Below are positions 3,647 through 22,385 of a stretch of 64,000 nucleotides of DNA, piece after piece; the stretch's first letter is position 1, and each line of letters starts with the position of its first letter. Below the pieces are notes generated by a model that did no database searches, was not told the DNA's origin, and saw nothing but the letters and a program-made list of their open reading frames with translations. The translations under genes were made by a program, and so were the position numbers. Source of the DNA: Nanobdellota archaeon (GTDB lineage: Archaea > Nanobdellota > Nanobdellia > Pacearchaeales > JAHJTO01); contig JBHPFA010000002.1 of the NCBI GenBank assembly GCA_042572295.1, forward strand, positions 64,180 to 128,179. The letters are read 5' to 3'.

Positions 3647-3881
3647 ATCTGTTTTTCTTACCATAAAGCAAGTTTTCCCAGTAAGTTAATACCTGCCAAA
3701 ATAGGGCAATTAATCCAGATACTAATAAAAGTAAGAAAATGAACTCAAAAAGTGTGGCATCTTCTGGTAGTCCAATTATTGGAACCAAAATTAAGAAAGC
3801 GACTGCACCCATGATAGCACCCTTTTGCCAAGGCCTTCTATTTTGCCACCAATTTTTCTTGATTCTTTGCTTTTTTGCCAT
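3645..3881 (-). CDS. Small membrane protein (78 aa)
   Basis: Basic N-terminus MAKKQRIKKNWWQNRRPWQK followed by two hydrophobic helices. Preferred over the overlapping + ORF 3739..3921. Confidence 0.45.
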   Translation of the reverse strand: MAKKQRIKKNWWQNRRPWQKGAIMGAVAFLILVPIIGLPEDATLFEFIFLLLLVSGLIALFWQVLTYWENLLYGKKNR

Positions 3882-4015
3882 CTTTTATGAACTATTCAGG
3901 AGTTTTTATAGATCTCTGTGAAAGTTAGCTGGTTCTGGCTGGATATATGTGATTTCGCAGTGTGTTTTTGTGATTTTTGACCGGCCTTTGGCCAGATTTT
4001 TGCTGGATTTTTGTT

Positions 4016-4063
4016 GATTTTACTCATGCTAAAACTTTTAGCTGATGATTAAAGGTTTTAGCT
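4016..4063. repeat. 48-bp direct repeat, copy 2
   Basis: Identical to 3599-3646. It lies just 3' of the minus-strand pair 4100..4396 / 4397..4633. Confidence 0.9.
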
Positions 4064-4099
4064 TTTAAAGTTATGAAAATGCGTTGGTTTTTCGTATTT

Positions 4100-4396
4100 T
4101 TATCGACGATTTTTTGACGTTTCTAAAGGGGTATCCCCATATGCTCCGGAAGTGTCAAAACAATAGGGGCAATCTCCAAAAATTTTTCTCCCTTTTGTTA
4201 AAGGAGCACGACATTTACCAGGCTTTACAATATATTCACAATCTTTTACCTTGCCTTCTAATTGATGGGTGAAAGAATCATATCCAATAAAAATTTGGGG
4301 ATTTGCAGGAGTTGTTAAGCAGCCTTCCCCTTCCTCAGTTCTTCCACTACATAAGAGATTACTGAGATCTATTCTAAGAGGAGATTTTTTACCCAT
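4100..4396 (-). CDS. Cys-rich small protein (98 aa)
   Basis: Six Cys, including CPYC. Its start directly abuts the stop of 4397..4633, so they are probably co-transcribed. Confidence 0.4.
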   Translation of the reverse strand: MGKKSPLRIDLSNLLCSGRTEEGEGCLTTPANPQIFIGYDSFTHQLEGKVKDCEYIVKPGKCRAPLTKGRKIFGDCPYCFDTSGAYGDTPLETSKNRR

Positions 4397-4633
4397 TTAT
4401 TTCTTCCTTTTATTTCTTTTTTTGTATTTTCTATGGGCCCAACCTACTGCTGAGCCGATTACTGCTCCAAGTAATGTGATAATCAAAATTGTGATAATTA
4501 TTGCCAAAAGCCTAACCACGATTGGCACTACAAAGTAAGCAACAATTAATAAAAATGCAATCAAGGCCCCTCTTGGTCCTGCGTCTAAATTATCCCAAAG
4601 CATTCTCCATCCAGTTATTTCGTTTTTTGCCAT
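4397..4633 (-). CDS. Small membrane protein (78 aa)
   Basis: MAKNEITGW..., a long hydrophobic core, then the basic tail HRKYKKRNKRKK. Preferred over the + ORF 4269..4538. Confidence 0.45.
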   Translation of the reverse strand: MAKNEITGWRMLWDNLDAGPRGALIAFLLIVAYFVVPIVVRLLAIIITILIITLLGAVIGSAVGWAHRKYKKRNKRKK

Positions 4634-4689
4634 TTTTCTCTTTTTTATTTTACCGTCGACAAACAGCTTTTTAGCAAAATGATGAGGGC

Positions 4690-4727
4690 TGTTTAAGCTG
4701 TTTAAACAGTTGTTTAAGGGTGTTTAA
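4690..4727. promoter_or_regulatory. Array of four phased TGTTTAA boxes (putative operator) in a divergent intergenic region
   Basis: TGTTTAA occurs at 4690, 4699, 4711 and 4721 (spacing 9/12/10 bp), including the palindromic CTGTTTAAACAG. The array lies between the divergent starts at 4633 (-) and 4803 (+). Confidence 0.55.
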
Positions 4728-4802
4728 AGTTAATAAATCTTTGCTTATAATAAGAATATCTAACGAAGGATTTAAATACTAGAAATGGCCTATTTATAGA
4801 CG

Positions 4803-5426
4803 ATGGTTTGGTGGTTATTTTCGTCAAAAGAGGAGCACAATGACCTTAAGACAGAGGTTAAACAGGCTTTCTCAGCGGTTAAAGGTGATCTAAAGAAGGC
4901 TTCTGATTGGATCACTCATTTAAACACCCGTGACAAACACCATGAACATGGTGTTGAAGAGATACATGAGCGTTTATCCTCTATGGAAGAGGAGATTTCT
5001 GAAATGAAAGGCTTTATTGCTTTCTTTTCTACTAAGATGTCCAAACAGCTGTTTAAACAGCGTCAAACAGGTGTTCATAAACAGACAGCTGTTGAAGGTG
5101 TCCAAACACCTGTTCAAACAGCTGTCCAAAGTTCATTTTTACAAAATTTGAGTGTTATGGAAAGAGCAATTGTATGGACTTTACTGAATACTGACCTGAA
5201 ATTGAGTTGTGATGATATATCTTCAATTTTGAACAAAGAGAGGAGTACAGTTAGGGGACAGATCAATTCAATAAAACAGAAGAGTGAGGGCCTTATAGAT
5301 GAGGTCTTAGAAAAGAGTGGAAAAAAGCGATTTTTTATACCTGAAGAGGTAAGGGAAACAGTATTCTCGAAGATGAAAGCTGATAAGGGCTCAAGGAAAA
5401 AACGAAAAAGAGAGAGTGAGTATTAA
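4803..5426 (+). CDS. Coiled-coil / winged-helix DNA-binding protein (paralog of 5991..6779)
   Basis: N-terminal heptad-like region, a Q/K/T/V-rich linker, a C-terminal wHTH-like segment (MERAIVWTLLNTDLKLSCDDISSILNKERSTVRGQINSIKQK) and a shared tail motif (FFIPEEVR versus LKIPPELR in the paralog). TATA-like tttaaata lies at 4771-4778. Confidence 0.55.
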   Translation: MVWWLFSSKEEHNDLKTEVKQAFSAVKGDLKKASDWITHLNTRDKHHEHGVEEIHERLSSMEEEISEMKGFIAFFSTKMSKQLFKQRQTGVHKQTAVEGVQTPVQTAVQSSFLQNLSVMERAIVWTLLNTDLKLSCDDISSILNKERSTVRGQINSIKQKSEGLIDEVLEKSGKKRFFIPEEVRETVFSKMKADKGSRKKRKRESEY

Positions 5427-5430
5427 GCAG

Positions 5431-5483
5431 TTAAACGAACTTCTATTTCTAATTAAACGAACTAAGATGCATGTTAAACGAAC
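5431..5483. repeat. Three direct iterons TTAAACGAACT
   Basis: Copies start at 5431, 5453 and 5474 (spacing 22 and 21 bp), immediately after the stop of 4803..5426. Confidence 0.85.
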
Positions 5484-5489
5484 TAAATG

Positions 5490-5900
5490 ACGACAAAATG
5501 AAAAAAGTGAGAGTTAGAAAGTATGAATAAAGGGTAGAAAATGGTAAAAATGAGCGAAAAGAGGCTTAAGTGTGGCAAAAAGTGAGAGATCTGGGTAGAT
5601 ATAAGGCAGGATAGTAGGAAGTGGGGCCTAAAGGGGAGAAAAATAGGCCATTTTAGAGCAAAAAGTGAGGAATAAGTACGCTTAATCGATAAGTGTGGTA
5701 TGAAAATAGTGAAAAATGAGGTATTTTGATAAAAATAGAGGTTTATGTAGGAAAGAAAGTCCAGTTTTGGTAAGAAAGTGAGAGATAAGCTAGTTAATCG
5801 GTTAAACGAAAAACTGCAGTTTTTAAGGCTTAAACTACTTTGGAGGACAATTTGACTTATTTTGGGTGGTAAGTTGAAAGGAATGTGAGATTTTCTCACA
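5490..5900. repeat. Purine-rich (C-poor on + strand) non-coding region with dispersed AAAGTGAGAG repeats
   Basis: AAAGTGAG(A/G)G occurs at 5504, 5578, 5662 and 5775. TTAAGTGTGG/ATAAGTGTGG occurs at about 5567 and 5689. An inverted GTGAG-ATTTT-CTCAC lies at 5885-5899. The 138-aa minus ORF here is low-complexity and judged spurious. Confidence 0.7.
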
Positions 5901-5990
5901 CTTTGATCCTAAAGTTAACAAAAAATCGCTGATTTTTCATAAAAATATTCCTTAAATTTTTGTAGAATTAAGCCTTAATTCATCAAATTC

Positions 5991-6779
5991 TTAATCTCTA
6001 GTAAATTTATTTAGATCTGTATCTTTACTCAGTCCTCTGATACGCATAAGATTGTCTAACGTAGCCAGATTCCGTAGTTCTGGAGGTATTTTTAGTACAG
6101 TAGTCTTATTATTTAGCCTATTTTTGAGTATTGGTATGCCTTTTTGAGTAATCCTTCTTATATAGTCCCTAATGCTGGAAGAGGTTAAACTAGTCCTTAC
6201 AGCGAGATCTTGATAAGTTACTTGATTTTGTGTTTTATCGACGGTAAAAAGCACTGAAAATATGAAGAATTCTTGCTTCGTTAATGACTCAAATTTCTGC
6301 TTTAAGTCTGATTTCAGTGTGTCCATGAGTTTGGTTAAGTTGCTTATTTGAGTATTTTGTTCGCTTTTATCTGTCGAAGTGTCGAAGAATGTGTCTATGT
6401 GTCGAAGTTTTTCAGGGATGTGTCGAAGATGTGTCGAAGAATGTGTCGAAGTTTCGGGTTGAGGGTTTTGATGAATAGTCGGTTTACCGTCGAGTGGAAA
6501 TAAGGGGGTGTTGTCTGTCTGTGTGTCTATGTGTCGAAGTGTCTGAACCCCTTCATTTCCAGTGGAACTTTCTGGTAAAAGGTTCGTTTTAATTGAGTTA
6601 TTCGGTATTTGGGGAAGTTCTTCTGGATTCATAGACTTTTTTACTAGAATATCATAACGAAGTTCGTTTAATTCTTCTTTTAGTCTGTTAATTTCTTCTT
6701 TTATCCCTTTAATTTCAGAAAAAAATGAAATTTCTTCCTCTTTTTCATTATTTCTAGGATCCATGAATGAGTAGAACAC
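5991..6779 (-). CDS. Coiled-coil / winged-helix DNA-binding protein (paralog of 4803..5426)
   Basis: N-terminal coiled coil (EEINRLKEELNELRYD), a repeat-bearing linker and a C-terminal wHTH-like segment (VTYQDLAVRTSLTSSSIRDYIRRITQKGIPIL). Confidence 0.55.
   Translation of the reverse strand: MFYSFMDPRNNEKEEEISFFSEIKGIKEEINRLKEELNELRYDILVKKSMNPEELPQIPNNSIKTNLLPESSTGNEGVQTLRHIDTQTDNTPLFPLDGKPTIHQNPQPETSTHSSTHLRHIPEKLRHIDTFFDTSTDKSEQNTQISNLTKLMDTLKSDLKQKFESLTKQEFFIFSVLFTVDKTQNQVTYQDLAVRTSLTSSSIRDYIRRITQKGIPILKNRLNNKTTVLKIPPELRNLATLDNLMRIRGLSKDTDLNKFTRD
6371..6541. repeat. Seven copies of (T)GTGTCGAAG embedded in the 5991..6779 coding region
   Basis: GTCGAAG starts at 6373, 6381, 6401, 6422, 6433, 6445 and 6533. 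On the coding strand CTTCGACAC is read in all three frames (TSTH, SSTH, LRHI, FFDT). Confidence 0.85.
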
Positions 6780-6813: not shown

Positions 6814-7122
6814 TTATATATAAGTGTGGTCTTTCTCGTCGTATTTTAGGTTTTGATCATGTACTCTTTGGTATGCTTGGAAAGTATTATTTGTTAATCT
6901 CCAACGTATTCTTCTCAAATAAATTACTCCGCTTGCATTTTTTTTCACGCCAGCGATAAGATTTCCTTTCTCCATTTCAATAAGAAGTCTTTTTAGAAAC
7001 TCTTCATCTCTTGCCATATGCATAGCAATCTCCGACGTGAAAAGGGCTTTCGGAGAGTTTCTAAATAGAACAGACAGTACCTCTTCTTTAATACGATCAA
7101 TTTTATCTTGAGATATTCGCAT
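6814..7122 (-). CDS. Small winged-helix protein (102 aa)
   Basis: SPKALFTSEIAMHMARDEEFLKRLLIEMEKGNLIAGVKK...IRWRLT has an HTH-plus-wing-like pattern. Confidence 0.5.
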   Translation of the reverse strand: MRISQDKIDRIKEEVLSVLFRNSPKALFTSEIAMHMARDEEFLKRLLIEMEKGNLIAGVKKNASGVIYLRRIRWRLTNNTFQAYQRVHDQNLKYDEKDHTYI

Positions 7123-7208
7123 TTTGTTTCAAAGAAACTCTACTATAAAAGTTATTCGGTATAACTACTAACAAAAACATTTAAAACGAACGTTTGGATG
7201 CTTTTTTG

Positions 7209-7796
7209 ATGGCTAGATATCATTCACTTAGGGCAATTTCATGGAATCAAGCTGCTCCAAAGGGAAACGCAGGGAAGGGAATATATGGTGATGAAAAAAA
7301 TAAATTAAATAAAGAGGCCCAAAAAAGAGCTATGAGAAAACTGCCCCCTAAGGATCCAATCTTTGAAAGGAAGAAAAGACTCGATAAAGTAAGGCCCCTT
7401 GCGGAGATTATAAAAAGAAAATTTAAGGAATGCAGGAAAAAAACGAATTATTCTGGTCCTGAAGAGGAAGCATATGTGCCAAGAAAAGAATATGCTAATT
7501 TTTGGTGTCAACAAACTAGGAAAATTAAGGGTACACCAAAAGCAAATGCCTTGATTTGTTTCATTATTGAGATTGAAACTGGAAATCTACTAGAAAGACT
7601 GGTTGATATGGGCACTATTAGAGACACTAATCGTACAAAAAAGACTTTGCTTGAAACTTATGAGCAAAAAATTTCTAATTATGCTGCAGTTTTAGGGAAA
7701 AAAGGGAAGGAATACAAATCTTTGATGTATGGAGTTCTTAAAATACAACCAAAATTTGAATTTAAGCCTTCAAAATTAAAGGCTTACAAGAAATAA
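7209..7796 (+). CDS. Hypothetical basic protein (195 aa)
   Basis: The ORF track starts at a TTG (7194). The ATG at 7209 sits 22 nt after the TATA-like tttaaaac (7180-7187). No family recognised. Confidence 0.45.
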   Translation: MARYHSLRAISWNQAAPKGNAGKGIYGDEKNKLNKEAQKRAMRKLPPKDPIFERKKRLDKVRPLAEIIKRKFKECRKKTNYSGPEEEAYVPRKEYANFWCQQTRKIKGTPKANALICFIIEIETGNLLERLVDMGTIRDTNRTKKTLLETYEQKISNYAAVLGKKGKEYKSLMYGVLKIQPKFEFKPSKLKAYKK

Positions 7797-7801
7797 TTGA
7801 A

Positions 7802-8533
7802 TTATTTAGTAGAAGTTTTCCAAAGTATGTCAAAATAATCTCTGTATGCATCTGCTGCTGATTTATTTTCTATGATTATTGCTTCTGGAATGTCTGTCCA
7901 AAGAATTACTGAGACTTTATTTCCATAAATGTTTGTTGAGACTACACTTTCTTTGATATTTCTTGCAAAAAATCTTATTTCCATATTTTTATTTGGAGTT
8001 TGAGGTGGAGAATCTTTTCTTACTAGACGTTTTATCTTTATATTGTTCTTATCTAAACCTTTTAAGAAGTATGGAAGATAATATGCCATTTTCTCTCGGA
8101 ATTTCCCTGAAGAATCGATTACTAAATTCTCTTGCCCCTTCGCTTCCTTTAGAATATCTTCAAAGACTGCTTTTATTCCCTTGAATCCTTTATACATTGT
8201 AACGTTATGTTTATCTTTTTCTTTTTTGTGTAAGGCATTTAATTCTGGAATTATTATTTCTATCTCCTCTTGCTTTTCTTTTAAGATTTCTACTAACCTT
8301 TGTGGAGATATTGCTTTGAACATTTTTCTATTTGATTCAAGAGCATAAGAAACTAATCCTTTTTTCAATAATTTCCTTAGTGCATCATAACAAGATGTTC
8401 TGTCAATCATTGCTTCCTTTGCAATCTTACCTGCCATCTCTTGTCCAAGTCTAAGAAGTGTTAGATATATCTTTGCTTCATTGTGACTTAGGCCATATTT
8501 TTCTAATATTAGTCTTATGTTTTCGTATTCCAT
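7802..8533 (-). CDS. TrmB-family transcriptional regulator
   Basis: LGLSHNEAKIYLTLLRLGQEMAGKIAKEAMIDRTSCYDALRKLLKKGLVSY is the typical TrmB N-terminal wHTH, followed by a C-terminal effector-like domain. Confidence 0.85.
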   Translation of the reverse strand: MEYENIRLILEKYGLSHNEAKIYLTLLRLGQEMAGKIAKEAMIDRTSCYDALRKLLKKGLVSYALESNRKMFKAISPQRLVEILKEKQEEIEIIIPELNALHKKEKDKHNVTMYKGFKGIKAVFEDILKEAKGQENLVIDSSGKFREKMAYYLPYFLKGLDKNNIKIKRLVRKDSPPQTPNKNMEIRFFARNIKESVVSTNIYGNKVSVILWTDIPEAIIIENKSAADAYRDYFDILWKTSTK

Positions 8534-8997
8534 TATATTTTCCTAGTTAAGATGATCATTTCATCTTTGTATTTTGCTTTTTTCCATGCACTAAGTGCTG
8601 CTTTGTTGTGTAGATCAACTAAAAGTTCAACAATTTTAATATTTTTTGACCTGAAAAACTTCTCAAATGCTTTGACTAGCTTGTTCCCTATGCCTCCTTT
8701 CTGACATTTGGGGTCAACTGCTGCTTCTGAGATATAACCATACCTTTTGAATTTGACAAAAGGGGGATATTCCTTTATTTTTCCAACTGCGTAAGCTAAG
8801 ATTTTTCCGTTTTCTTCATAAACTAGTGCAAGAGAATTTCCTCCCTTCATGAATCCTGTAAGTTTTTCTTTAAAGTAAGCCATTTCTTTGGGGCTAAAAA
8901 AGTGCCTTTTTGGATTGCATTTTATATGGTGCTTTATGAAGTATTTGTGTAGCTCCAGTATTCTGTCTATGTCTTGAGACTTAGCTTTCCTTATCAT
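8533..8997 (-). CDS. GNAT-family N-acetyltransferase
   Basis: AVDPKCQKGGIGNKLVKAFEKF matches the acetyl-CoA binding motif A (Q/RxxGxG/A). Confidence 0.85.
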   Translation of the reverse strand: MIRKAKSQDIDRILELHKYFIKHHIKCNPKRHFFSPKEMAYFKEKLTGFMKGGNSLALVYEENGKILAYAVGKIKEYPPFVKFKRYGYISEAAVDPKCQKGGIGNKLVKAFEKFFRSKNIKIVELLVDLHNKAALSAWKKAKYKDEMIILTRKI

Positions 8998-8998
8998 G

Positions 8999-9625
8999 TT
9001 ATCTCCATTCCTTTTCGAACTGTTTTATAAAGATCTTTAGAAAATTTAGGTAGCTTTTGGCAATTTTCCTGGCTTCCTTAGTGTAAAAATCTTTTAAATC
9101 AAGTAAGAGCATGCATTTTAGAAATTCGAAGATGCTATCTGTATTGTAATCATAGAAACTAGTTAGCACTCTTGAGCCATCTGAGTGGATAATCATATCA
9201 TCTGCATGTTCAACAGCAGTTCTTAGGATACCCATTGCTCCCAAAATGTCAATTTTGTCTGCATCTTGAAGAATTTTTGCTTCAATTGTTGTAGGTTTTT
9301 TGCCTTTGCTTTTCCTATGAACAGAGATACAGTGGACAACTGCTTGAATCTTATTTTTTGGGAAGTTAACTTTCTTTAAGATTTGGGGAGCCATTTTTGC
9401 ACCCTCTTCTGCGTGGTCCTTGCATTTCTTTTGTTCTTGCTTTCTTCTTGCAATATCATGTAAGAGAGTTGCGGCCCTTATTATTTGTAAGTCCACTTTC
9501 TTTTCAGTTCTTGCAATTTGGAGTGCATATCTGTAGACTCTTTGAGTATGGTGGAAGTCGTGACCACCTTTTTTATCAAAATGTTTCCTTGCTTCTTTTT
9601 CAATTTGTTGAGTTAATTGATCCAT
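8999..9625 (-). CDS. HD-domain metal-dependent phosphohydrolase
   Basis: HHTQRVYRYALQIA...AATLLHDIAR...DADKIDILG contains the H...HD...D motifs. Confidence 0.85.
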   Translation of the reverse strand: MDQLTQQIEKEARKHFDKKGGHDFHHTQRVYRYALQIARTEKKVDLQIIRAATLLHDIARRKQEQKKCKDHAEEGAKMAPQILKKVNFPKNKIQAVVHCISVHRKSKGKKPTTIEAKILQDADKIDILGAMGILRTAVEHADDMIIHSDGSRVLTSFYDYNTDSIFEFLKCMLLLDLKDFYTKEARKIAKSYLNFLKIFIKQFEKEWR

Positions 9626-9671
9626 GTTATAGATATACTCCCAACACTATTATAAATATGTTGTGGAAAAC

Positions 9672-9751
9672 CCTACAACACTAATTGATATAATAAAGTT
9701 CGTTTAAGTTATTAAGAGCTGGAAAACCAGCAACAACGGAGGGAAAAAATG
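9672..9751 (+). promoter_or_regulatory. Duplicated promoter/leader module, copy A
   Basis: About 88% identical to 11917-12001. It contains cctacaaca, the atataataaag TATA-like box, AGTTCGTTTAA and the hairpin GCTGG-aaaa-CCAGC (9718-9731), followed by GGAGGG and the ATG. Confidence 0.7.
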
Positions 9752-9898
9752 AAACTCGAACAAAGAATCTGCACAGCAGGAGAAAAAGACTGGAAAGAAG
9801 AATACGGTTTTAGCAAAAAGGAATATACAACTAAAGAAGGTTATAGAGTCTGGGGCTTTGACGAAGAAAGCTACGGAACTTACGGCGGAGGAAACTGA
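9749..9898 (+). CDS. Small hypothetical protein (49 aa)
   Basis: MKLEQRICTAGEKDWKEEYGFSKKEYTTKEGYRVWGFDEESYGTYGGGN. It lies directly behind module copy A with the SD-like GGAGGG. Confidence 0.3.
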   Translation: MKLEQRICTAGEKDWKEEYGFSKKEYTTKEGYRVWGFDEESYGTYGGGN

Positions 9899-9908
9899 AA
9901 CCTTGAAA

Positions 9909-10058
9909 ATGGAGAACACTGAGATAGATGCTCAGATTGAGCAGATCAGAATAAGGTTTCGAAAGCTAAGAATGGCTGTCCAACCGGGCGGACTTGCACC
10001 TGAAACAATTGAAAACTTCAGGAAAAAGATAGAAAACCTTGAAACTCTGAGACAATAA
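9909..10058 (+). CDS. Small coiled-coil protein (49 aa from the ATG; the track ORF starts at TTG 9858)
   Basis: MENTEIDAQIEQIRIRFRKLRMAVQPGGLAPETIENFRKKIENLETLRQ. No family recognised. Confidence 0.3.
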   Translation: MENTEIDAQIEQIRIRFRKLRMAVQPGGLAPETIENFRKKIENLETLRQ

Positions 10059-10103
10059 AGGAAAAAGGAAAAGAATTAAATAAAGACGAATATTTCAATT
10101 GAA

Positions 10104-10847
10104 ATGAAAGAATATGATGAGGTAGCAGAGTTTTACATTAAGAAAAGAAGTGATAAAAGTCGTTTAGATTATAATAGAGACATAGAAATTCCTGCAATGA
10201 TGAAGATGTTGGGAGTTGTTAAAGGAAAAAAGATCTTGGATATGGGCTGTGGCTTTGGTGATAAGGCCCCAAAGCTAATTAAGAAGGGTGCAAAGAGCTA
10301 TGTAGGGTTTGATACAAGCAAAGAATTATTAAAATTTGCAAAAAGGTATGAGAATTCTCAAATTTCTTTCTCTGTTGGAGCAATGGGAAAGAAACTTCCT
10401 TACAAAAGCGGAAGTTTTGACTTAATTTTTTCTTCTTTAGCAGTTCATTATGTTAAAAATTTGAAAACGGTATTTACTGAGGCAAATAGGGTGTTGAGAA
10501 GGGGAGGATTGTTTGTTTTTTCTACACAACATCCAGTTTATAACATGATAAATACAAACAAAAGACATCTTATAGGTATGAAGAAGGTTAAAGGTAAGAG
10601 AATTGTTTATGGAGATTACTTTGATGAGAGCTTAAAAGAGTATGATATGGGTAAGACTGCTGGAATTCTTAAGATCTACCCCTATACTTTTCAGACTTTT
10701 ATTAAAACTTCATTAAATTCTGGTTTTGAGATAGTAGATTACATAGATACGAAGCCCATTCCTGCCTCGAGAAAATACGGCCCTTCAAAATATAATGTTG
10801 CTATGAAGATTCCTTCATTCATTATATTCAAATTAAAGAAGAAATAA
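10104..10847 (+). CDS. Class I SAM-dependent methyltransferase
   Basis: Motif I ILDMGCGFGD and post-I/II elements (DLIFSSLAVHYV). Confidence 0.85.
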   Translation: MKEYDEVAEFYIKKRSDKSRLDYNRDIEIPAMMKMLGVVKGKKILDMGCGFGDKAPKLIKKGAKSYVGFDTSKELLKFAKRYENSQISFSVGAMGKKLPYKSGSFDLIFSSLAVHYVKNLKTVFTEANRVLRRGGLFVFSTQHPVYNMINTNKRHLIGMKKVKGKRIVYGDYFDESLKEYDMGKTAGILKIYPYTFQTFIKTSLNSGFEIVDYIDTKPIPASRKYGPSKYNVAMKIPSFIIFKLKKK

Positions 10848-10848
10848 A

Positions 10849-11433
10849 TCATTCCTTAGAAAACCACTCTGCAAAATCTATTGCATTTTGTACATTATGC
10901 TTTGCATACTTATTTTTTTCTTCTAAAGTCATCTGACTGAAGGTTCTTGTGTCTCCTTTTGGAACAAAAACTGTATCTAAAGGAAAATGTTTCTTTAAAT
11001 TTCCTTTTTGTTTGAGAATTACTTTGCCTTTACATAAATTTGTGAAAACTTTTGTTTTACCGTTGGGACTTGCAAATGCTAAAGCTGATCTAAATTCAGC
11101 TGAACGATTCTTTTTTTGTTTTAATAAATTAATTATTCCTTTAACTCCAATTGTTTGTACTGCAAACTTAGTATTTATTCCTGGGAAGCCGTTTAAACAG
11201 CTGATGAAAAGCCCATTATCCTCACAAACTACTGGTTTCTTTAGAATTTTAACTGCGTCTAACGCTTTTTGTCTTGCAATTTCTTTAACATCGTTCTCTT
11301 TCTTTACCTCTGGCAAGTCTAAATCAACTTGTTTAAGCTTTACGCCATATTTTTCAATCACTGATGCGATCTCAAACACCTTGCTTTGGTTTCCAGATAC
11401 AAAATAAACAGTTGTTTCTTTTTGTTTTGTCAT
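10849..11433 (-). CDS. Non-canonical purine NTP pyrophosphatase (HAM1/RdgB/ITPase family)
   Basis: VYFVSGNQSKVFE...LPEVKKEN...CEDNGLFISCLNGFPGINTKF are HAM1 family signatures. Confidence 0.9.
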   Translation of the reverse strand: MTKQKETTVYFVSGNQSKVFEIASVIEKYGVKLKQVDLDLPEVKKENDVKEIARQKALDAVKILKKPVVCEDNGLFISCLNGFPGINTKFAVQTIGVKGIINLLKQKKNRSAEFRSALAFASPNGKTKVFTNLCKGKVILKQKGNLKKHFPLDTVFVPKGDTRTFSQMTLEEKNKYAKHNVQNAIDFAEWFSKE

Positions 11434-11491
11434 CTTTTTGTTAGTTTCGAAAAAGCTTGGGCGCTATTTAACCCTTTGCTGTAAGATCTGC

Positions 11492-11818
11492 TTATCCTTC
11501 TTGTTCGCCCACATCAAAAAGGTAGTCTTCCCATGCCCTTTCTTGGGGCGTCATTCTTTGATAAAGTTCGTGGGCAGTTGCTGGGCGAGGGGTTGGTTTT
11601 TGGTATTCCTTTGCAGCCTTGGATTCTCTTTCTTTCTTTATTTCATCCATCTCTTCTTCAGTCTGGAAAGAATATGCCATCCCAAACCCATTTCCGAAGT
11701 GTGTTCCAGACACATACCTTTTCTTCTTTTTTTCTTCTTTTTCTACTTCCTCATTAGCTTTTTTAGACCTTTCTTTAGCAAGCTTGTATAGACCTTTTTT
11801 CTTATTATTTCCTAACAT
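11492..11818 (-). CDS. Hypothetical Lys/Glu-rich protein (108 aa)
   Basis: ORF only. It runs divergently from promoter module copy B. Confidence 0.4.
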   Translation of the reverse strand: MLGNNKKKGLYKLAKERSKKANEEVEKEEKKKKRYVSGTHFGNGFGMAYSFQTEEEMDEIKKERESKAAKEYQKPTPRPATAHELYQRMTPQERAWEDYLFDVGEQEG

Positions 11819-11916
11819 TTTGTTCCTCCGTATTGCAGTTTGTTAGCTGCTGCGTCATTGGGCTTTCCTCAAGAGAATATGGCGAGAGGATTACATAAGA
11901 TTGTGTTGTAGAGATT

Positions 11917-12001
11917 CCTACAACAATAATTCATATAATAAAGTTCGCTTAAGTTATTAAGAGCTGGACAAAGGGCCAGCAACAATGGGGGACAAAAAAT
12001 G
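11917..12001 (+). promoter_or_regulatory. Duplicated promoter/leader module, copy B
   Basis: Same order of elements as copy A. The hairpin stem is conserved (GCTGG...CCAGC, 11963-11980) with a different, longer loop. Confidence 0.7.
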
Positions 12002-12535
12002 GCTAAAAAATATGTCTTAACGGGCGGACCTGGAGTCGGAAAAAGCACAACTTTGAAAGTTCTTAGCAACAAAAAAGGAGTCTGCACACTTAGAGAAGCA
12101 GCAACTTATGTGATTACTCAAGAACTTGATAAGGAAAAGCAAGGAAAGGAAGCACAACTACCCTGGACTGACAGAGACGGCTTCCAAAAGAGAGTTTTGG
12201 AACAGCAGCTAAGATGGGAAGAAGGAATACCCTTCCACGCAAGGATCTTCTTAGACAGGGGAGTGATTGATGGACTGGCTTACTACAGACTTGATGGAAT
12301 CACACCACCAAAAGAACTTGAAAAGGCTGCGGAAGAATCAAGATATGACAAAATCTTCTTGCTAGAAAGACTAACAAGCTTTGAAAGAACAACCACAAGA
12401 AGAGAAGATCTTGAAACTGCGCAAAAACTACACTACTTGGTAGAAAAGGAATACAAAAAATACGGCTACAACCCAATCAGAATTCCTGAAGCGGATCCCG
12501 AAAGCAGAGCACACAACATCTTGGGGCTCTACTGA
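11999..12535 (+). CDS. P-loop ATPase (AAA_28/NadR-like kinase family)
   Basis: Walker A LTGGPGVGKSTT. The size and the FLDRGVIDGLAY segment are typical of small NTPase/kinase folds. Confidence 0.7.
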   Translation: MAKKYVLTGGPGVGKSTTLKVLSNKKGVCTLREAATYVITQELDKEKQGKEAQLPWTDRDGFQKRVLEQQLRWEEGIPFHARIFLDRGVIDGLAYYRLDGITPPKELEKAAEESRYDKIFLLERLTSFERTTTRREDLETAQKLHYLVEKEYKKYGYNPIRIPEADPESRAHNILGLY

Positions 12536-12559
12536 ACAAGACATAACCAAAGAAAGAAA

Positions 12560-12964
12560 ATGACTGAAACAATGAAACAAAGTTGTTCATTTCCTAGGAA
12601 AGAGATTTGGACTTGGTATAATATAATGCATGACTTGGAAAATCAAGGGAAGGTTAATGGAGTGGTTTGGAGAGGTTGTGGACCCCAAGGTTATCCTTTT
12701 AGTTTTGATTACAAGGGCAAGGTATTAACAATGACTTGGCAAAAAGATCTTTTCCTTCTTCTTAGTATGGAGAAAGATAGTAAAGATTTCGGAAAGGTTG
12801 TTGAAGGTTTTTCAAAAGTTGTTGAATACAAACCATTCTGTAAGTATCTAGACTGCAAGAACGGAATCTTTACTTATGAATGGGACAAGAAAGACTCAAA
12901 AGGAAGATATGAAGAACTTAAGGGACAAGGACACAAAATAACTTTACTGCAAAAGTTAGAGTAA
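12560..12964 (+). CDS. Hypothetical protein (134 aa)
   Basis: ORF only; Trp-rich. No family recognised. Confidence 0.4.
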   Translation: MTETMKQSCSFPRKEIWTWYNIMHDLENQGKVNGVVWRGCGPQGYPFSFDYKGKVLTMTWQKDLFLLLSMEKDSKDFGKVVEGFSKVVEYKPFCKYLDCKNGIFTYEWDKKDSKGRYEELKGQGHKITLLQKLE

Positions 12965-12989
12965 AGATATAGGGGGAACTGCGAAATGA

Positions 12990-13005
12990 AGCTGTTTAAA
13001 CAGCT
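12990..13005. promoter_or_regulatory. 16-bp perfect palindrome AGCTGTTTAAACAGCT
   Basis: Read directly. The same core occurs at 4698-4709 and 5047-5061. It lies about 110 nt upstream of the lhr ATG. Confidence 0.5.
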
Positions 13006-13113
13006 GTCTTCTAAAATTTTACTCATAGGACTTGTTTGAACAAGTGTGTTAGTATACTATATACGGACCGAAAAATCTTTATAGTCCAAACTCTTACGGG
13101 GGAAGCCTATAAA

Positions 13114-15720
13114 ATGTTTAAACAAGCTAAGTTGAGAGATAAGAAAGAATTGATGGATAGTCTTGATCCCCTTGTTGAAGAATGGTTCTTTTCACGTTTC
13201 AAAGAGTTTTCATTACCCCAGAAATATGGAGTGATGCCTATTTTTGAAAGGAAAAATATTTTGATCTCTGCTCCAACTGGGGGAACCAAGACACTTACTG
13301 CTTTTTTGAGTATCTTAAATTATATTGTAAGCATTGCAAAGAGGGGTGAACTTGAGAATAAAGTTTATGCAACTTATATTTCTCCATTAAAGGCATTGAA
13401 TAATGATATTCAAGTTAACTTAGTTGGGCCTTTGAAAGAAATAAATGAGATTGCAAAGAAAAAAGGAATTGAGATGGATGAGATAAGGGTTTTGGTGAGA
13501 ACAGGAGATACTCCAACATCTGAGAGAGTGAAGATGTTGAAGAAAGCACCACATATTTTAATCACTACTCCAGAAACTTTGGCAATCGTTTTGAATTCTA
13601 CAAAGTTCCATGAAAAATTAAAGGCTTCTGAATTTTTGATTTTGGATGAGATTCATGCACTTGCTGGAAACAAACGTGGGGTTCACTTGAATTTGAGTAT
13701 TGAAAGATTACATGATATGTCAGATATTAAACCTATTCGAATTGGTTTGTCTGCTACTATTGCTCCTTTGGAAGAGATTGCTAAGTATCTAGTAGGGTAT
13801 GAAGGAAATAAGGAAAGGGATTGTTTGATTGCAGATGTCCAGTATACTAAGAAATCTAACTTTGAGGTTTTGTGTCCTGTAAGTAATTTGATTGACACTA
13901 CTGCTGCTGATCAACAATATCATATGTATAAATTATTAGACGAACTTATTCAGGAACATAAGACTACTATTATATTTGCAAATACAAGGGCTGCGACTGA
14001 AAGAGTTGTGCATAACTTGAAAGAAAGGTTTCCTCAAAGATATAATGAAAATATTGGTGCGCACCATTCTTCCTTAAGTAGGGAGATGCGTTTTATGGTT
14101 GAAAGTAGACTTAGAGAAGGGAAGATGAAAGTTGTTGCTACTTCCAGCTCCTTAGAATTGGGAATAGATGTGGGGGCAATAGATTTGGTAATCCTCTTGG
14201 GTTCACCTAAAAGTGTTTCACGTGCTTTGCAAAGGGCTGGTAGGGCAGGACATAAATTAAACGAAGTTAGTAAAGCAAAGTTTGTTGTTTTGGATAGAGA
14301 TGATTTGGTTGAATGTGCTGTGATGATGAAAGAATCTATTGAAAAGCATATTGATCGTGTTCAGATTCCTAGAAATGCATTAGATGTGCTTGCGCAACAG
14401 ATTTATGGTATGGCTATTTCTGGACCAATGCCCATTAAGGATATGTATGCTTTGATTAAGAAGAGTTATTGTTATCATGAATTGAGTATTGATGATTTTT
14501 ATTCTGTAATCTCTTATCTTGCTGGAGAATATGAGTTGAATGCTAGTAATGTTTATGCAAAGATATGGTATGACAGAGAAAGTGGGATGGTTGGAAAGAG
14601 AGGTAAGTTGGCAAGAGTTATTTACATGACAAATATTGGAACTATTCCTGATGAAAGTTTTGTTAATGTAGTTGCGGCGACCCCCTCCGAAAGAAAGGGG
14701 CAGAAAATTGGAATGATTGATGAGGGTTTCTTAGAAAGAATGAAAAAAGGAGATATTTTTGTTTTAGGTGGAGCAAAATACCAATTTCTTTATAGTAAAG
14801 GGATGAATGCTTATGTTAATGCATCTGTTATGAAGAGTCCCACAATCCCTTCTTGGTTTTCAGAGATGTTGCCATTGAGTTTTGATCTTGCAAATGCTAT
14901 TCAAAGGTTTAGAAAGTTAGTTAATCAAAAATTTGAGAGTAAGAAATGTAAGAACGAGATTATTGATTTTATTTCAGAGTATCTTTATGTGAATAAGACC
15001 ACTGCTTCTGCAATTTATGGTTATTTTGATGAACAACATAGATATAGTAAGATACCTCATTCTGAAAGATTGTTAATTGAAGATTTCAAAGACATGTCTA
15101 AGCATTATGTTGTGTTCCATTCTGTTTATGGGAGGAGAGTCAATGATGCTTTATCTAGGGCGCTGGCTTATGTTGTTGGAAGATTTGGGGGCAGAGATAT
15201 AGAAGTCGGAATTAATGATAATGGTTTCTTCTTAGCAAGCAATGATAAGATGAATATTGATAAAGCTTTGAAGAGTTTGACCTCAAAAAATCTTCAAGAG
15301 ATCTTGGATGAGGCAATTGCAAAGACTGAAGTGTTCAAAAGAAGGTTTAGGCATTGTGCAACAAGGGCTTTAATGATATTAAGAAATTATAAGGGCCGTT
15401 CAAAGAGTGTTGGGAGGCAACAATTAGGAAGTCATTTCTTACTTGCAGCAGTTCAGAAAGCAACTACTGAGTTTCCTGTTTTGAGGGAGGCTAAAAGAGA
15501 GATTATGGAAGACTTAATGGATATTAAGAATACTAAATTGGTGTTGGATGCTTTGAAAAATGGAAAAATTAAGACCGTTTATTTGAATAAAGAGTTTCCT
15601 TCTCCTTTTTCATTTGCTTTAATTACACAAGGGCATGCAGACTTGTTGAAAATTGAAGATAAGGTGGCATTTCTAAAAAGAATGCATGAAGGTGTTCTGG
15701 AAAGGATTGGTAAGAAGTAG
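13114..15720 (+). CDS. lhr: Lhr-type ATP-dependent DEAD/DEAH-box helicase (Lhr-core with DEAD_assoc C-terminal domain)
   Basis: Motif I APTGGTKT, motif II LILDEIHAL, SAT-like SATIAP and motif VI QRAGRAGH, plus a long C-terminal Lhr-specific region. Start moved from the track's TTG (13036) to the ATG at 13114. Confidence 0.9.
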   Translation: MFKQAKLRDKKELMDSLDPLVEEWFFSRFKEFSLPQKYGVMPIFERKNILISAPTGGTKTLTAFLSILNYIVSIAKRGELENKVYATYISPLKALNNDIQVNLVGPLKEINEIAKKKGIEMDEIRVLVRTGDTPTSERVKMLKKAPHILITTPETLAIVLNSTKFHEKLKASEFLILDEIHALAGNKRGVHLNLSIERLHDMSDIKPIRIGLSATIAPLEEIAKYLVGYEGNKERDCLIADVQYTKKSNFEVLCPVSNLIDTTAADQQYHMYKLLDELIQEHKTTIIFANTRAATERVVHNLKERFPQRYNENIGAHHSSLSREMRFMVESRLREGKMKVVATSSSLELGIDVGAIDLVILLGSPKSVSRALQRAGRAGHKLNEVSKAKFVVLDRDDLVECAVMMKESIEKHIDRVQIPRNALDVLAQQIYGMAISGPMPIKDMYALIKKSYCYHELSIDDFYSVISYLAGEYELNASNVYAKIWYDRESGMVGKRGKLARVIYMTNIGTIPDESFVNVVAATPSERKGQKIGMIDEGFLERMKKGDIFVLGGAKYQFLYSKGMNAYVNASVMKSPTIPSWFSEMLPLSFDLANAIQRFRKLVNQKFESKKCKNEIIDFISEYLYVNKTTASAIYGYFDEQHRYSKIPHSERLLIEDFKDMSKHYVVFHSVYGRRVNDALSRALAYVVGRFGGRDIEVGINDNGFFLASNDKMNIDKALKSLTSKNLQEILDEAIAKTEVFKRRFRHCATRALMILRNYKGRSKSVGRQQLGSHFLLAAVQKATTEFPVLREAKREIMEDLMDIKNTKLVLDALKNGKIKTVYLNKEFPSPFSFALITQGHADLLKIEDKVAFLKRMHEGVLERIGKK

Positions 15721-15738
15721 TGGTTTAAATCCATTAAT

Positions 15739-15770
15739 CTTAAAAAGGTCTGAATTAAACCTTTTTTAAG
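15739..15770 (+). terminator. Hairpin plus T-run downstream of lhr
   Basis: AAAAAGGT-ctgaattaa-ACCTTTTT followed by T residues, 20 nt after the lhr stop. Confidence 0.45.
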
Positions 15771-15789
15771 GAAAAAGTTTTAGCAAAAA

Positions 15790-16503
15790 ATGGCAAGAAG
15801 AGTTTCATGGAAAAGTGTTGAAAGAATTGTTGATTCTTTAAAGAAGGGAGGAGTGATAATACATCCTTCTGAATATGAAGAATATTGTATTAGTTGTTTA
15901 GTTGATTCTGTAAATGGTGTGGGTAAGATAAGAGAGATGAAAAAATATAAGCCCATAACTGGCCTTTGTGTCGTCTTTCCAAGTTTGGATAAAGTAAGAG
16001 AATATACTTCTATCAATAATGCTCAAATAGAGAAGATTGAAAACAAGTTTAAGGAAAGAAAAGAAGTCTTGACTCGGAGAGTAGAGGAACATGAAAAAGA
16101 GAATGCAGCAGGAAGGTATTGGTATAGGCCTGGAATGAGGAAAAAATGGATAGAGAACAATGTGTATTGGTTCAATGCGCCCAGAAAAGAAGGTTTGATT
16201 TCAGACTATGTCACTGGAGGAAATATAGAAATAACAAAACAGGTACGTTGTAGATTGGCCGTTTATCCAAAGATCTTAGATATAATCAAAGAGGTTGGGC
16301 CTTTAGTAACTGAAAAGGCTTCCATGGGGGCAGTAAGGGCTGCACAAAGGTATAAGGACTTGGATCTGGAGATCCTATCTTATGGAGATTATGTTGTTGA
16401 GGGGACCAATATGGGCAGATTTGAAGAAAAGGAAATTTCAACAAAGTATCTTGGAGTGGAAAAGGAAGAAGTGAAAGAGTCTCAAGAGAAAGTAGTAAAA
16501 TAG
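15790..16503 (+). CDS. Hypothetical protein (237 aa) with a weak YrdC/Sua5-like N-terminal pattern
   Basis: KKGGVIIHPSEYEEYCISCLVDSVNGVGKIREMK loosely resembles the YrdC fold signature. The rest is unassigned. Confidence 0.4.
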   Translation: MARRVSWKSVERIVDSLKKGGVIIHPSEYEEYCISCLVDSVNGVGKIREMKKYKPITGLCVVFPSLDKVREYTSINNAQIEKIENKFKERKEVLTRRVEEHEKENAAGRYWYRPGMRKKWIENNVYWFNAPRKEGLISDYVTGGNIEITKQVRCRLAVYPKILDIIKEVGPLVTEKASMGAVRAAQRYKDLDLEILSYGDYVVEGTNMGRFEEKEISTKYLGVEKEEVKESQEKVVK

Positions 16504-16571
16504 ATTTTTGAAAGGAAAAACTCGTTTTTTACAATAAAGTTTTTAAAGAGGTGTTACGAAAGAATATAGTT

Positions 16572-17522: not shown

Positions 17523-17561
17523 ACTCGGAAGGTTTTTATTAGCATTTTATTTCTTTGAATC

Positions 17562-18338: not shown

Positions 18339-18353
18339 TTCTGTGAAAGTTAG

Positions 18354-18623: not shown

Positions 18624-18686
18624 AGTATTTGATACTATCAACTACTCGTAAGAAATCTTTATTAAAGGTGGTTTCTATTAATTATC

Positions 18687-19352: not shown

Positions 19353-19368
19353 TGAATTCTTATTTTTT

Positions 19369-19449: not shown

Positions 19450-19484
19450 TCAAAATTTAAATACATAGATATTCTTCTTCTTAT

Positions 19485-20607: not shown

Positions 20608-20820
20608 TAAATAATAAATAGGTAAATTGTTTATAAATGTTTCTATGATTTTAGGGTTATTTCAGTCACTAATTTTTAAAGGGATTATTTGTAAAATGAG
20701 GGAGAAAATGGTAAAGATTGGTTAAAGAAAGAGTATATTTGAAGATCTTTATTAGTTATATTATTAAAAGAGTAATAGTCGTAGTATAATTGGATTAAAA
20801 GAACTAATTAAAAATAAGGG

Positions 20821-20849
20821 GTGTGTCCCCCTTGTTTCTCATGGAAAGG
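20821..20849 (-). repeat. ORB-like box 1
   Basis: The reverse complement reads ...TTTCCATGAGAAACAAGGGGGACACAC: a TCCA..GAAAC core plus a G-string. Confidence 0.55.
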
Positions 20850-20973
20850 TTTAAAAAGAAAACTCAAAATCTCTTCTTTATTCTTTATTTATATTTATAA
20901 ATATTTATATTATATATTATATATATTATATTATTATATACCTCATTTTTACGACGAGAGACACTGTTTTAAC

Positions 20974-20997
20974 CTCCACTGGAAACCAGGGTGTCTC
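20974..20997 (+). repeat. ORB-like box 2
   Basis: CTCCACTGGAAACCAGGGTGTCTC, bracketed by the inverted repeat GAGAGACAC / GTGTCTCT. Confidence 0.6.
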
Positions 20998-21055
20998 TAC
21001 CTTAAGATTTTTCCATTTATTTTTAGTAATTCTTACAAGCATTTATAAGCAAACT

Positions 21056-21076
21056 CTCCATTGGAAGCATAGGTTG
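21056..21076 (+). repeat. ORB-like box 3
   Basis: CTCCATTGGAAGCATAGGTTG, in the same orientation as box 2. Confidence 0.5.
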
Positions 21077-21176: not shown

Positions 21177-22385
21177 ATGGGTGTTGAACTTGATGACATA
21201 TTTGATTCGTTTACAAAGAATAGTATCTTTCAAGATAAACATGTTCTTCAAGCAAACTATAATCCTGAAACAATCCCCCATAGGGATGATCAAATAAAAC
21301 AAATTGCTGCAATTCTTGCTCCAACATTAAGATTAGACAAACCTTCAAACCTTTTTATCTATGGAAAGACTGGAACTGGAAAAACTTTGTCTGTTCAATA
21401 TGTTTGTAATCAATTAGAGAAAAGGGCTAAACAAAATAAAGCTAATTTGAAGTTTTTTTATATTAATTGCAAACTGAAAAAGGTAGCAGATACTGAATAT
21501 AGGATTCTTGCAGAGCTATTAAGACAATTAGGCAAGCAAGTTCCTTCTACTGGGCTACCTACCGATCAAATTTATCATAGATTTATTCAAACAATTGATG
21601 ATTCAAAAAAATTGATTGTTATTGTTTTAGATGAAGTTGATCAAGCAGTTAAAAAGATTGAAGATAACTTTCTTTATAACTTAACAAGATTAAATTCAGA
21701 ATTAAAAAACTCTCAATTAACAATTATAGGTATAAGTAATGATTTAGTTTTCTTAGACAATGTAGATCCCCGTGTAAAGAGTTCTCTTTCTGAAGAAGAA
21801 ATTGTTTTTCCACCATACAATGCATTACAAATACAAGATATTTTAAGAGAAAGGGCGAAGCTTGCATTTAAAGAAAAAGCTATTGGCGATGGAGTTATAG
21901 AGAAATGTTCTGCATATGCTGCTAGGGAACATGGAGATGCTAGGAGGGCCTTAGATTTGTTAAGGATTGCTGGAGAACTTACAGAAAGGGAAGGGAAAAA
22001 GGAAGTAAATATAAATTATATTGATTCTGCTAAACAAAAAATAGAGAAAGATAAGATTATAGATATTATTTCAACACAACCTAAACAATTTCAATTAGTT
22101 TTGTTAGCAATTATGGCTCTTACTGATTCTAGGAAGAATGAGAAGATATTTACTGGGGACACTTTTAATTCATATCGTGATTTTTGTGAACAAACTGGAA
22201 CAGAGCCTTTAACACAAAGGCGTGTTGGAGATATTCTGTCTGAGTTTGATATGTTGGGTATAATAAATGCTCAAGTTGTAAGTAAAGGGAGACATGGAAG
22301 GACAAAAGAGATCAAACTTTCAATCCCTCCTCATTTAATAAATAAATCAAAGATAATAGTTAGGGATTCATTAGGTTTAAAGTAA
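21177..22385 (+). CDS. cdc6: Orc1/Cdc6 replication initiator
   Basis: PHRDDQIKQIA, Walker A YGKTGTGKT, Walker B VIVLDEVD, sensor motifs and a C-terminal winged helix. SD aggaggt lies 6 nt upstream. Confidence 0.95.
   Translation: MGVELDDIFDSFTKNSIFQDKHVLQANYNPETIPHRDDQIKQIAAILAPTLRLDKPSNLFIYGKTGTGKTLSVQYVCNQLEKRAKQNKANLKFFYINCKLKKVADTEYRILAELLRQLGKQVPSTGLPTDQIYHRFIQTIDDSKKLIVIVLDEVDQAVKKIEDNFLYNLTRLNSELKNSQLTIIGISNDLVFLDNVDPRVKSSLSEEEIVFPPYNALQIQDILRERAKLAFKEKAIGDGVIEKCSAYAAREHGDARRALDLLRIAGELTEREGKKEVNINYIDSAKQKIEKDKIIDIISTQPKQFQLVLLAIMALTDSRKNEKIFTGDTFNSYRDFCEQTGTEPLTQRRVGDILSEFDMLGIINAQVVSKGRHGRTKEIKLSIPPHLINKSKIIVRDSLGLK

Follow-up and report, generated by a model that had tools for sequence, protein, structure and literature searches.

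A conserved, helically phased array of putative protein-binding boxes close to the replication origin of a Pacearchaeota-type archaeon

In this study, we describe a non-coding gap of 564 bp (positions 5427-5990) within a 64,000-nucleotide stretch of DNA (hereafter the window; contig JBHPFA010000002.1) from a Nanobdellota archaeon, a member of the DPANN archaea, whose assembly (GCA_042572295.1) comprises 856 kb with 33% GC and is 77% complete. The gap is located between two convergent genes, both encoding proteins with a coiled coil and a winged helix: a 207-amino-acid (aa) protein on the + strand (4803..5426) and a 262-aa protein on the - strand (5991..6779). The third conserved member of this cluster (6814..7122, - strand) encodes a 102-aa protein with a winged-helix-like sequence, for which no family match was obtained. 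In family searches, the flanking proteins matched only winged helices of the HTH_11, MarR, Lrs14 or Sta1 type. The 207-aa protein is composed of a long N-terminal helix (coiled coil), a disordered Q/T/V linker, a MarR/Lrs14-like winged helix and a C-terminal basic helix. Its AlphaFold2 model places a long helix at residues 3-82, a disordered linker at 81-109 and a winged helix, modelled with confidence, at 118-178, and the best matches of this model in the PDB are MepR (MarR family) and AbfR2 (Lrs14-type). A preliminary description of the window, made from the sequence alone, had proposed that the region is flanked by DNA-binding proteins, which is borne out by these matches and by the model. 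The 207-aa gene is a single-copy core gene found in 276/301 genomes of the order (Pacearchaeota-type DPANN) and is rarer elsewhere in the class; the open frames of its homologues vary between 199 and 306 codons.

The gap ranks with the largest gaps free of open reading frames (ORFs) in the assembly, and the genome is 92% coding. From 5485 to 5900, the + strand contains 168 A, 115 G, 103 T and 30 C, corresponding to 7% C and 28% G, and the longest run without any C spans 73 nt. This confirms that the strand is nearly devoid of C for about 400 bp. The GC skew in the gap reaches 0.66, and no other genuinely non-coding gap of 250 bp or more in the assembly is as skewed. Two gaps of higher or similar skew (C11, at a contig end, skew 0.52; and C10) were discarded, because they are coding and represent end-truncated genes, which the 70-aa ORF caller had overlooked, so that they were first taken as gaps. 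The GC content across 5400-6000 is 29-38% and thus not below that of the neighbourhood. On the pyrimidine-rich - strand, the tract contains a 138-aa open frame (5483..5899), which is not a gene. A Pfam search of this frame gave no match, tblastn against 28 orthologous gaps yielded a best E value of 0.14 over 13 residues, and the same-genus locus has no ORF of at least 60 aa at the corresponding position. On the purine-poor strand, long open frames in antisense are usual, while frames on the sense strand never exceed 48 codons. The 138-aa ORF is therefore a by-product of composition, in agreement with its earlier assessment as non-coding, and no conservation of it was found.

Short boxes of several types, designated M1 to M4, are distributed along the gap. 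Three exact copies of TTAAACGAACT (M1; + strand, 5431..5484) start at 5431, 5453 and 5474 and are therefore 22 and 21 bp, or two helical turns, apart; all three stand exactly where they had been reported as iterons. Each M1 box is a half-site of the palindrome ATTCGNTTAANCGAAT. Allowing up to one mismatch, the M1 10-mer TTAAACGAAC has 20 matches in the window compared to 5.3 +/- 2.0 expected, a number reached in 0/100 shuffles. A search of the genome for further iteron copies, which had been suggested as a check, located the exact M1 11-mer six times in the 856-kb assembly, with five of these copies lying within 4.3 kb of the gap.

The C-poor tract contains six AAAAGTGAGRGTTA-type (M2) boxes in all, each of them on the + strand. 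Box 1 (AAAAGTGAGAGTTA, 5502..5516) serves as the reference for the turn counts and is followed by the variant AAAAATGAGCG at 5545..5559 (43 bp or 4.1 turns after box 1), AAAAGTGAGAGATC at 5577..5591 (75 bp, 7.1 turns), AAAAGTGAGGAATA at 5660..5674 (158 bp, 15.0 turns), the variant AAAAATGAGGTA at 5711..5725 (209 bp, 19.9 turns) and GAAAGTGAGAGATA at 5773..5787 (271 bp, 25.8 turns). The repeated word for which at least four copies had been claimed corresponds to AAAGTGAG; it occurs at 5504, 5579, 5662 and 5775 (three times as AAAGTGAGAG and once as AAAGTGAGGA), and the whole genome contains only 32 copies. Two AAATGAG variants are found at 5548 and 5714. M2-like boxes (AGTGAG) are already present in the 3' end of the 207-aa gene, at 5283 and 5415. 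Read on the minus strand, each M2 box becomes CTCACTTTTT, i.e. T-runs.

Further downstream, the box TTAATCGGTTAAACGAAAA (5794..5812) represents the local copy of a conserved distal 16-bp palindrome (M3; consensus TAGTTATTCGGTnAAnCGAAnAA). M3 closes the array in most genomes, and some relatives have a perfect version of it (TCGGTTAACCGA); the M1 iteron is half of this 16-bp palindrome (ATTCGGTTAAACGAAT). Another palindrome, M4 (TTAAGGCTTAA, 5823..5833), recurs in several relatives, and its second copy is part of GAATTAAGCCTTAATTC (5965-5981), just past the stop of the convergent gene. Two TAAGTGTGG boxes (+ strand; 5567-5575 and 5690-5698) account for the second word that had been noted twice; they are specific to this genome, and their conservation in relatives is not evident. 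The inverted repeat GTGAGATTTTCTCAC (GTGAG-ATTTT-CTCAC) is indeed present at 5885-5899, but it does not end the region as had been stated, since the gap extends about 90 bp past it, up to 5990. This repeat is not kept in the same-genus genome.

In relatives, a direct DNA similarity (Blast) search recovered only pieces of 20-60 nt. As the spacers are unalignable, conservation of the array was scored by motif counting over the fetched loci. Downstream of the 207-aa gene, practically every one of about 100 loci carries two to seven sense-strand copies of AAGTGAG. For 29 genomes, the downstream regions, including the last 60 coding nt, were aligned. The gap in these genomes is 138-540 bp long, has a sense-strand C content of 4-11% in each of them and stops at the convergent stop of the 262-aa homologue in 27/29 cases. 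The dominant word AAAAGTGAGAGTTA (M2), with the core AAAGTGAG, is found in 28/29 gaps, compared to a maximum of 11/29 for any 8-mer in shuffles. The relaxed core A[AG]TGAG is present 104 times in the 29 regions, always on the sense strand, and no antisense copy was detected within the 29 gaps. A-rich patches surround M2 at about -22, -11, +10, +21 and +32. In many genomes, the first M2 box provides the codons for VKVRV at the C-terminus of the protein, and the array thus begins inside the gene; the orientation of M1, by comparison, varies between genomes. Across about 100 genomes, the flanking proteins are only 45-55% identical, yet the 7-14-nt core is retained letter for letter in the non-coding copies. 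The array is kept as motifs and not as alignable sequence. Outside the order, one genome (G322) retains M2 boxes and an origin recognition box (ORB). In a genome of another order (G371), an assembly gap breaks up a perfect 11-bp tandem array of GAGTGAGAAGT, which counts at least 11 copies and is located upstream of the homologous gene, and the part of the gene coding for the linker contains (GTGA)15 beside an ORB-like box; these features lie at 531-590 and 860-1080 of the locus C20:13400-14700.

The consecutive M2-M2 spacings of the 29 genomes (n = 60-78) show a best period of 10.5-10.6 bp with phase 0 (Rayleigh R 0.50, p between 1e-7 and 5e-9). For replication, a fixed prediction of 10.5 bp was applied to 70 further genomes using motif positions only. 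Their 132 spacings cluster at 52-55, 63-65, 74-75 and 84-85 bp, and the ranges in between are empty (R 0.36 at 10.5 bp, p 2.5e-8). The whole-array coherence at exactly 10.5 bp amounts to 2.12 in the first and 1.63 in the second set, compared to 1.0 for random arrays; these values were reached by 0/2000 simulations, and peaks at 10.0 or 11.0 bp were absent from both sets. The distances from M2 to M1, which served as a control, are unphased (R 0.08). The 10.5-bp period also recurs in the composition of the 29 gaps, where both AAA and G positions follow it with z values of 16-20 relative to shuffles, and in the window the power of the G periodicity is 11.6 compared to a genome-wide 99th percentile of 4.8. 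Boxes on the same helix face combined with phased A-tracts are a property of duplex DNA, and this therefore points to a DNA-level array rather than to an RNA motif.

The window also contains the replication origin. The canonical oriC (20817..21070) consists of an ORB on the - strand (about 20817-20849), a (TA)n-rich DNA unwinding element (DUE; about 20870-20945), an ORB on the + strand (about 20973-20997) and a mini-ORB at 21057, with the two ORBs in inverted orientation (TTTCCATGAGAAACAAGGGGGACAC on the - strand, CTCCACTGGAAACCAGGGTGTC on the + strand). The only copy of orc1/cdc6 (21177..22385) lies directly downstream of it. The distance between oriC and the gap is about 15 kb here, compared to about 2 kb between oriC and the array in the compact genome G124. 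In 11/11 genomes checked, the single orc1/cdc6 is located 3-17 kb from the 207-aa gene and on the same strand. In G124, the 207-aa gene is followed by the array (188 bp), the homologues of the 262-aa and 102-aa genes, two small genes, ORB-DUE-ORB and finally orc1. A pair of ORB-like boxes with G-strings was additionally detected in the linker-coding part of the 262-aa gene (6490-6515 on the + strand, 6543-6569 on the - strand); elsewhere in this genome, such boxes occur only at oriC. The second of them (GGAACCCCTTCATTTCCWRTGGAA, encoding GNEGV) is conserved almost letter for letter across the order and stands beside a (CTGT)n run. The 262-aa gene additionally carries M1-like boxes at 6582 and 6662.

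The gap 5427-5990 itself is not the origin, because it contains no ORB or mini-ORB (TCCAnnGGAA dyad with or without G-string; the nearest are at 6490-6569 and 20817-21070) and no AT-rich DUE, which is found at 20870-20945 instead, and because no turn of the cumulative GC skew is seen at this place in the contig. The earlier proposal of a plasmid or viral replication origin is likewise contradicted by the core chromosomal nature of the locus and by the oriC 15 kb away. A plasmid or virus remnant was rejected based on the distribution of the 207-aa gene in the order, its conserved neighbours and the lack of any relatives of the locus in plasmid and phage collections. Cargo of an integrated island beside a XerA-like recombinase was rejected as well, as the three genes belong to the core of the order and keep their synteny within it.

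In the vicinity of oriC, an M1-like box (ATTAAAAGAACTAAT, 20793-20807) is located about 10 bp from the first ORB. A segment of about 12.8 kb (7194-19904) lies between the winged-helix cluster and two small genes (encoding a 141-aa protein and an 85-aa PRC-barrel protein) that abut oriC. It contains genes for a TrmB regulator, GNAT, HD, methyltransferase, ITPase and AAA_28 proteins, an 894-aa ORF and others, and it ends at a tRNA-Ser gene (19368-19451). Judging from gene order, this segment resembles an insertion or rearrangement, as its flanking neighbours are contiguous in G124.

Other non-coding M1 copies in the genome sit 39-76 nt upstream of gene starts. At this distance, AAAGTTCG(T/C)TTAAGT boxes occur in the window (9690-9710 and 11935-11955) as well as at C1:183635 and C4:9263, and the genes behind them encode a 49-aa ORF, an AAA_28 NTPase, an Lrp/AsnC-type regulator with a double helix-turn-helix and a 186-aa protein. 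These genes appear to form a small regulon sharing the iteron motif. A role of M1 as a basal promoter or TATA box was rejected: tRNA promoters read AAAnnCTTTAAAA, and AGTTCGNTTAA is found at only about eight non-coding sites. Because of this difference to tRNA promoters and the position of its other copies upstream of starts, M1 is probably a specific operator or promoter variant and seems to behave in an operator-like manner.

Based on the findings described above, we consider it probable that the gap is a conserved, helically phased array of predicted protein-binding boxes on A-tract-phased and hence intrinsically bent DNA, which belongs to a conserved origin-side module. In all likelihood, it is a previously undescribed element for control or segregation beside the origin; an RNA gene is improbable. 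The asymmetric M2 boxes (AAAAGTGAGRGTTA), which all point in one direction and are spaced by 4-12 turns of 10.5 bp from the last codons of the 207-aa gene through the gap, could be bound on one helix face by one or more of the 207-aa, 262-aa and 102-aa proteins as candidate binders. The M1 and M3 boxes (half-site TTAAACGAAC, full site ATTCGGTTAAACGAAT) would act as operator-like sites for a dimeric winged-helix protein. The coiled coils may then link the bound proteins, whereby about 0.2-0.5 kb of DNA would be bent or wrapped into a higher-order nucleoprotein complex. Such a complex might provide a handle, similar to a centromere, by which the DNA is segregated or anchored, or it might tune origin firing as an accessory element. 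Its site of action would most likely be the origin region, because the cluster is kept beside oriC and orc1 across the order and because the neighbouring gene carries ORB-type boxes. The resemblance to an iteron or partition site seen in the preliminary description holds at the level of anatomy: the repeats are real, the tract is non-coding, and the putative protein-binding boxes form a phased array.

Several observations weigh against this interpretation. The identity of the binders is a guess from adjacency, and no partition NTPase (ParA, ParM, TubZ) is encoded in the conserved cluster. A P-loop gene with an M1-type promoter, located 6 kb away, was considered as a ParA-like partner and rejected, as it is AAA_28/NadR-like. 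The non-conserved spacers are uniformly purine-rich, which would equally be expected from a constraint at the RNA level. Transcription of the 207-aa gene probably continues into the region and makes it a 3' untranslated region (UTR), since the first T5 run on the + strand appears only at about 5817, downstream of the last M2 box. With respect to phasing, the AAA power of this region alone reaches only about the 97th percentile, in a genome with a raised 10.5-bp A-tract background (mean power 1.66). Furthermore, the genomes are related and their spacings not fully independent, and a test on the unique spacing values alone was not significant. The 10.5-nt period could also be a relic of coiled-coil coding or of decayed 10-11-bp tandem repeats. 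Nevertheless, we favour selection for phase over an inherited period, because the period is sharp and non-integer, was replicated in the second set of genomes and accompanies boxes that are kept while the spacers are not. Histone positioning was considered as a cause of the periodicity, and the search for histone genes in this 77%-complete assembly gave only a sub-threshold, interrupted histone-fold match (C4:18091-18195, E 0.002, one stop).

An origin of these features at the RNA level was already raised in the preliminary description as a long purine-rich non-coding RNA (ncRNA). The region would in this case yield an unstructured, C-poor ncRNA or long 3' UTR, whose AAAAGUGAGRG repeats bind or sequester an RNA-binding protein in a sponge-like manner or control the mRNA. 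Every M2 copy is indeed on the sense strand of the gene, the spacers are unconserved yet C-poor in all 29 genomes, and the position of the first T5 run behind the last M2 box makes read-through transcription likely. Purine loading would keep such an RNA single-stranded, which agrees with minimum free energies no better than those of shuffles (z -0.36 for the + strand, -1.32 for the - strand). However, we consider this explanation unlikely, as there is no RNA reason for spacings in multiples of 10.5 nt or for A-tracts with a 10.5-nt period, and no fold signal was found. Rfam at gathering thresholds detected only a tRNA-Ser at 19369 in the whole window, and a permissive scan (E <=1) of 5300-6100 detected nothing. 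Complementary flanks or a conserved hairpin around M2 were not seen by eye in the printed copies, the 29-region alignment contains no conserved TATA/BRE of the tRNA-gene type at a fixed place, and the promoter-like M1 boxes (TTAAACGAAC) point either way between genomes, leaving no conserved independent promoter (a bacterial-type promoter and terminator scan was uninformative for an archaeon). In G371, moreover, the same core forms the perfect 11-bp DNA tandem repeat upstream of the gene. Equally, we give little credence to a purely local element without any role at the origin, i.e. autoregulatory operators or a roadblock, terminator or insulator parting the convergent transcripts. Such an element would account for the location of the array exactly at the convergence of two transcripts; M1-type boxes at promoter distance before four or five other genes, including a regulator, would make the M1 factor a transcription regulator, and the minus-strand T-runs of M2 (CTCACTTTTT) can terminate archaeal RNA polymerase. 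Yet operators are not usually located at the 3' ends of both genes; in genomes that are 92% coding, termination would need much less than an array of phased boxes of up to 0.5 kb, and at oligo-T it requires no conserved GTGAG core. The linkage to oriC and orc1 and the ORB boxes in the neighbouring gene would also be left unexplained.

A second or extended origin would make use of the iterons and GTGAG boxes for recruiting an initiator and of the neighbouring ORB pair for recruiting Orc1, possibly aided by an R-loop of the purine-rich transcript. Purine-rich transcripts favour stable RNA-DNA hybrids. Direct repeats resembling iterons, spaced by 21-22 bp and by multiples of 10.5 bp, the two ORB-like G-string boxes 500-580 bp away in the 262-aa gene, a type otherwise confined to oriC, and the conservation of the locus beside orc1 are all in line with this idea. 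We nevertheless regard it as highly unlikely, since the gap with its GC content of 29-38% lacks an unwinding element, an ORB and a skew turn, and since a complete textbook ORB-DUE-ORB arrangement stands beside the single orc1/cdc6. In addition, no Rep-type initiator is encoded next to the array, as no Rep family was among the family and structure matches of the flanking proteins. Hardly credible, finally, is a neutral relic, in which the boxes would be functionless, decayed tandem duplications of the purine-rich 3' end of the 207-aa gene (K/R/E-rich tail). The frequent coding of VKVRV by the first M2, a near-copy of that coding segment as the next unit in G196 and the variable length of the open frame of the gene would fit such a history. 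Against it stand a core retained letter for letter across about 100 genomes with unalignable spacers and proteins of 45-55% identity, as well as spacings that remain quantised at 10.5 bp; besides, dead DNA should be lost in genomes of such high coding density.

Phased arrays of protein-binding repeats are known from plasmid partition systems. In ParR/parC of plasmid R1 and TubR/tubC of pBtoxis, direct repeats on the same face are bound cooperatively by a small dimeric protein, forming a bent or superhelical filament, and TubR is a winged-helix protein. Like parC and tubC, the array presented here has phased repeats beside genes of small winged-helix candidate binders, with the binding itself being predicted. 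Unlike them, it is chromosomal and origin-proximal in an archaeal order instead of plasmid-borne, its spacing is variable (4-12 turns) and not tightly tandem, the candidate binders possess long coiled coils, and a ParM, TubZ or ParA-type NTPase gene is missing from the cluster. The iterons of theta plasmids (F, P1, pPS10, R6K), found at origins and as 'inc' control iterons, are bound by winged-helix Rep proteins. Similarly, the array contains direct repeats at whole turns (M1, 22 bp) adjacent to winged-helix genes and could titrate or pair (handcuff) a protein near the origin. It differs from them by a MarR/Lrs14-like fold instead of a Rep homologue and by the absence of a DUE, of DnaA or ORB boxes and of a mobile element; the initiator here is Orc1/Cdc6, which has its own ORB boxes elsewhere.

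Canonical archaeal origins, such as those of Pyrococcus or oriC1 of Sulfolobus, carry ORB and mini-ORB repeats around a DUE next to orc1/cdc6. The array shares the neighbourhood of an ORB-DUE-ORB arrangement and is flanked by order-conserved ORB-like boxes in the 262-aa gene, reminiscent of intragenic ORB clusters; however, it is separate from the origin, and both an ORB dyad (TCCAnnGGAA) and a DUE are missing from it. M2 matches the G-string half of an ORB only loosely (9/15 positions by eye). In bacteria, parS/ParB clusters and the DnaA-titrating datA/DARS sites of E. coli are conserved chromosomal cis-elements near oriC that tune segregation or the initiator. The array resembles these elements as a conserved chromosomal cis-element near oriC, with a predicted site-specific binding and a function inferred from its position. 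It belongs, however, to another domain of life, its proteins and motifs bear no relation to theirs, and no CTPase or ATPase partner was identified.

To our knowledge, chromosome segregation and the control of origin firing are largely unknown in DPANN and most other archaea, and no centromere-like site has been defined; a literature search found no description of such arrays or of Pacearchaeota origins. As a tentative and rather speculative extension, the array, the two coiled-coil winged-helix proteins and the intragenic ORB boxes might together represent a new archaeal centromere or replication-licensing module of Pacearchaeota and their relatives. In this scenario, the bent DNA next to oriC would be covered by the coiled-coil winged-helix proteins, which would segregate or anchor the origin region, or gate the loading of Orc1, and no ParA-type NTPase would take part. 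The present analysis defines a specific cis-element, shared by hundreds of genomes, with same-face boxes on phased A-tracts, three candidate binders and a position next to the single origin. As the proteins are small and the DNA comprises only about 0.2-0.5 kb, the hypothesis is testable in vitro, although the organisms are uncultured. These results also illustrate that an RNA gene cannot simply be assumed wherever a non-coding tract has a strong purine skew.

Further repeats were observed around the cluster. Boxes of the type CTGTTTAA/AAACAG form an array upstream of the 207-aa gene (4680-4730) and appear again within its linker-coding part (5038-5130). In the 262-aa gene, GTGTCGAAG repeats are found at 6368-6540, where relatives have other words instead (GTGTTGGA, CTGTCTGT, GTGA). 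Just upstream of the cluster, positions 3672-4420 of the window, a region of 48-bp direct repeats and small membrane-protein cassettes, show the strongest 10.5-bp T-tract periodicity of the assembly, with a power of 15-19 compared to a genome-wide 99.9th percentile of 13.5.

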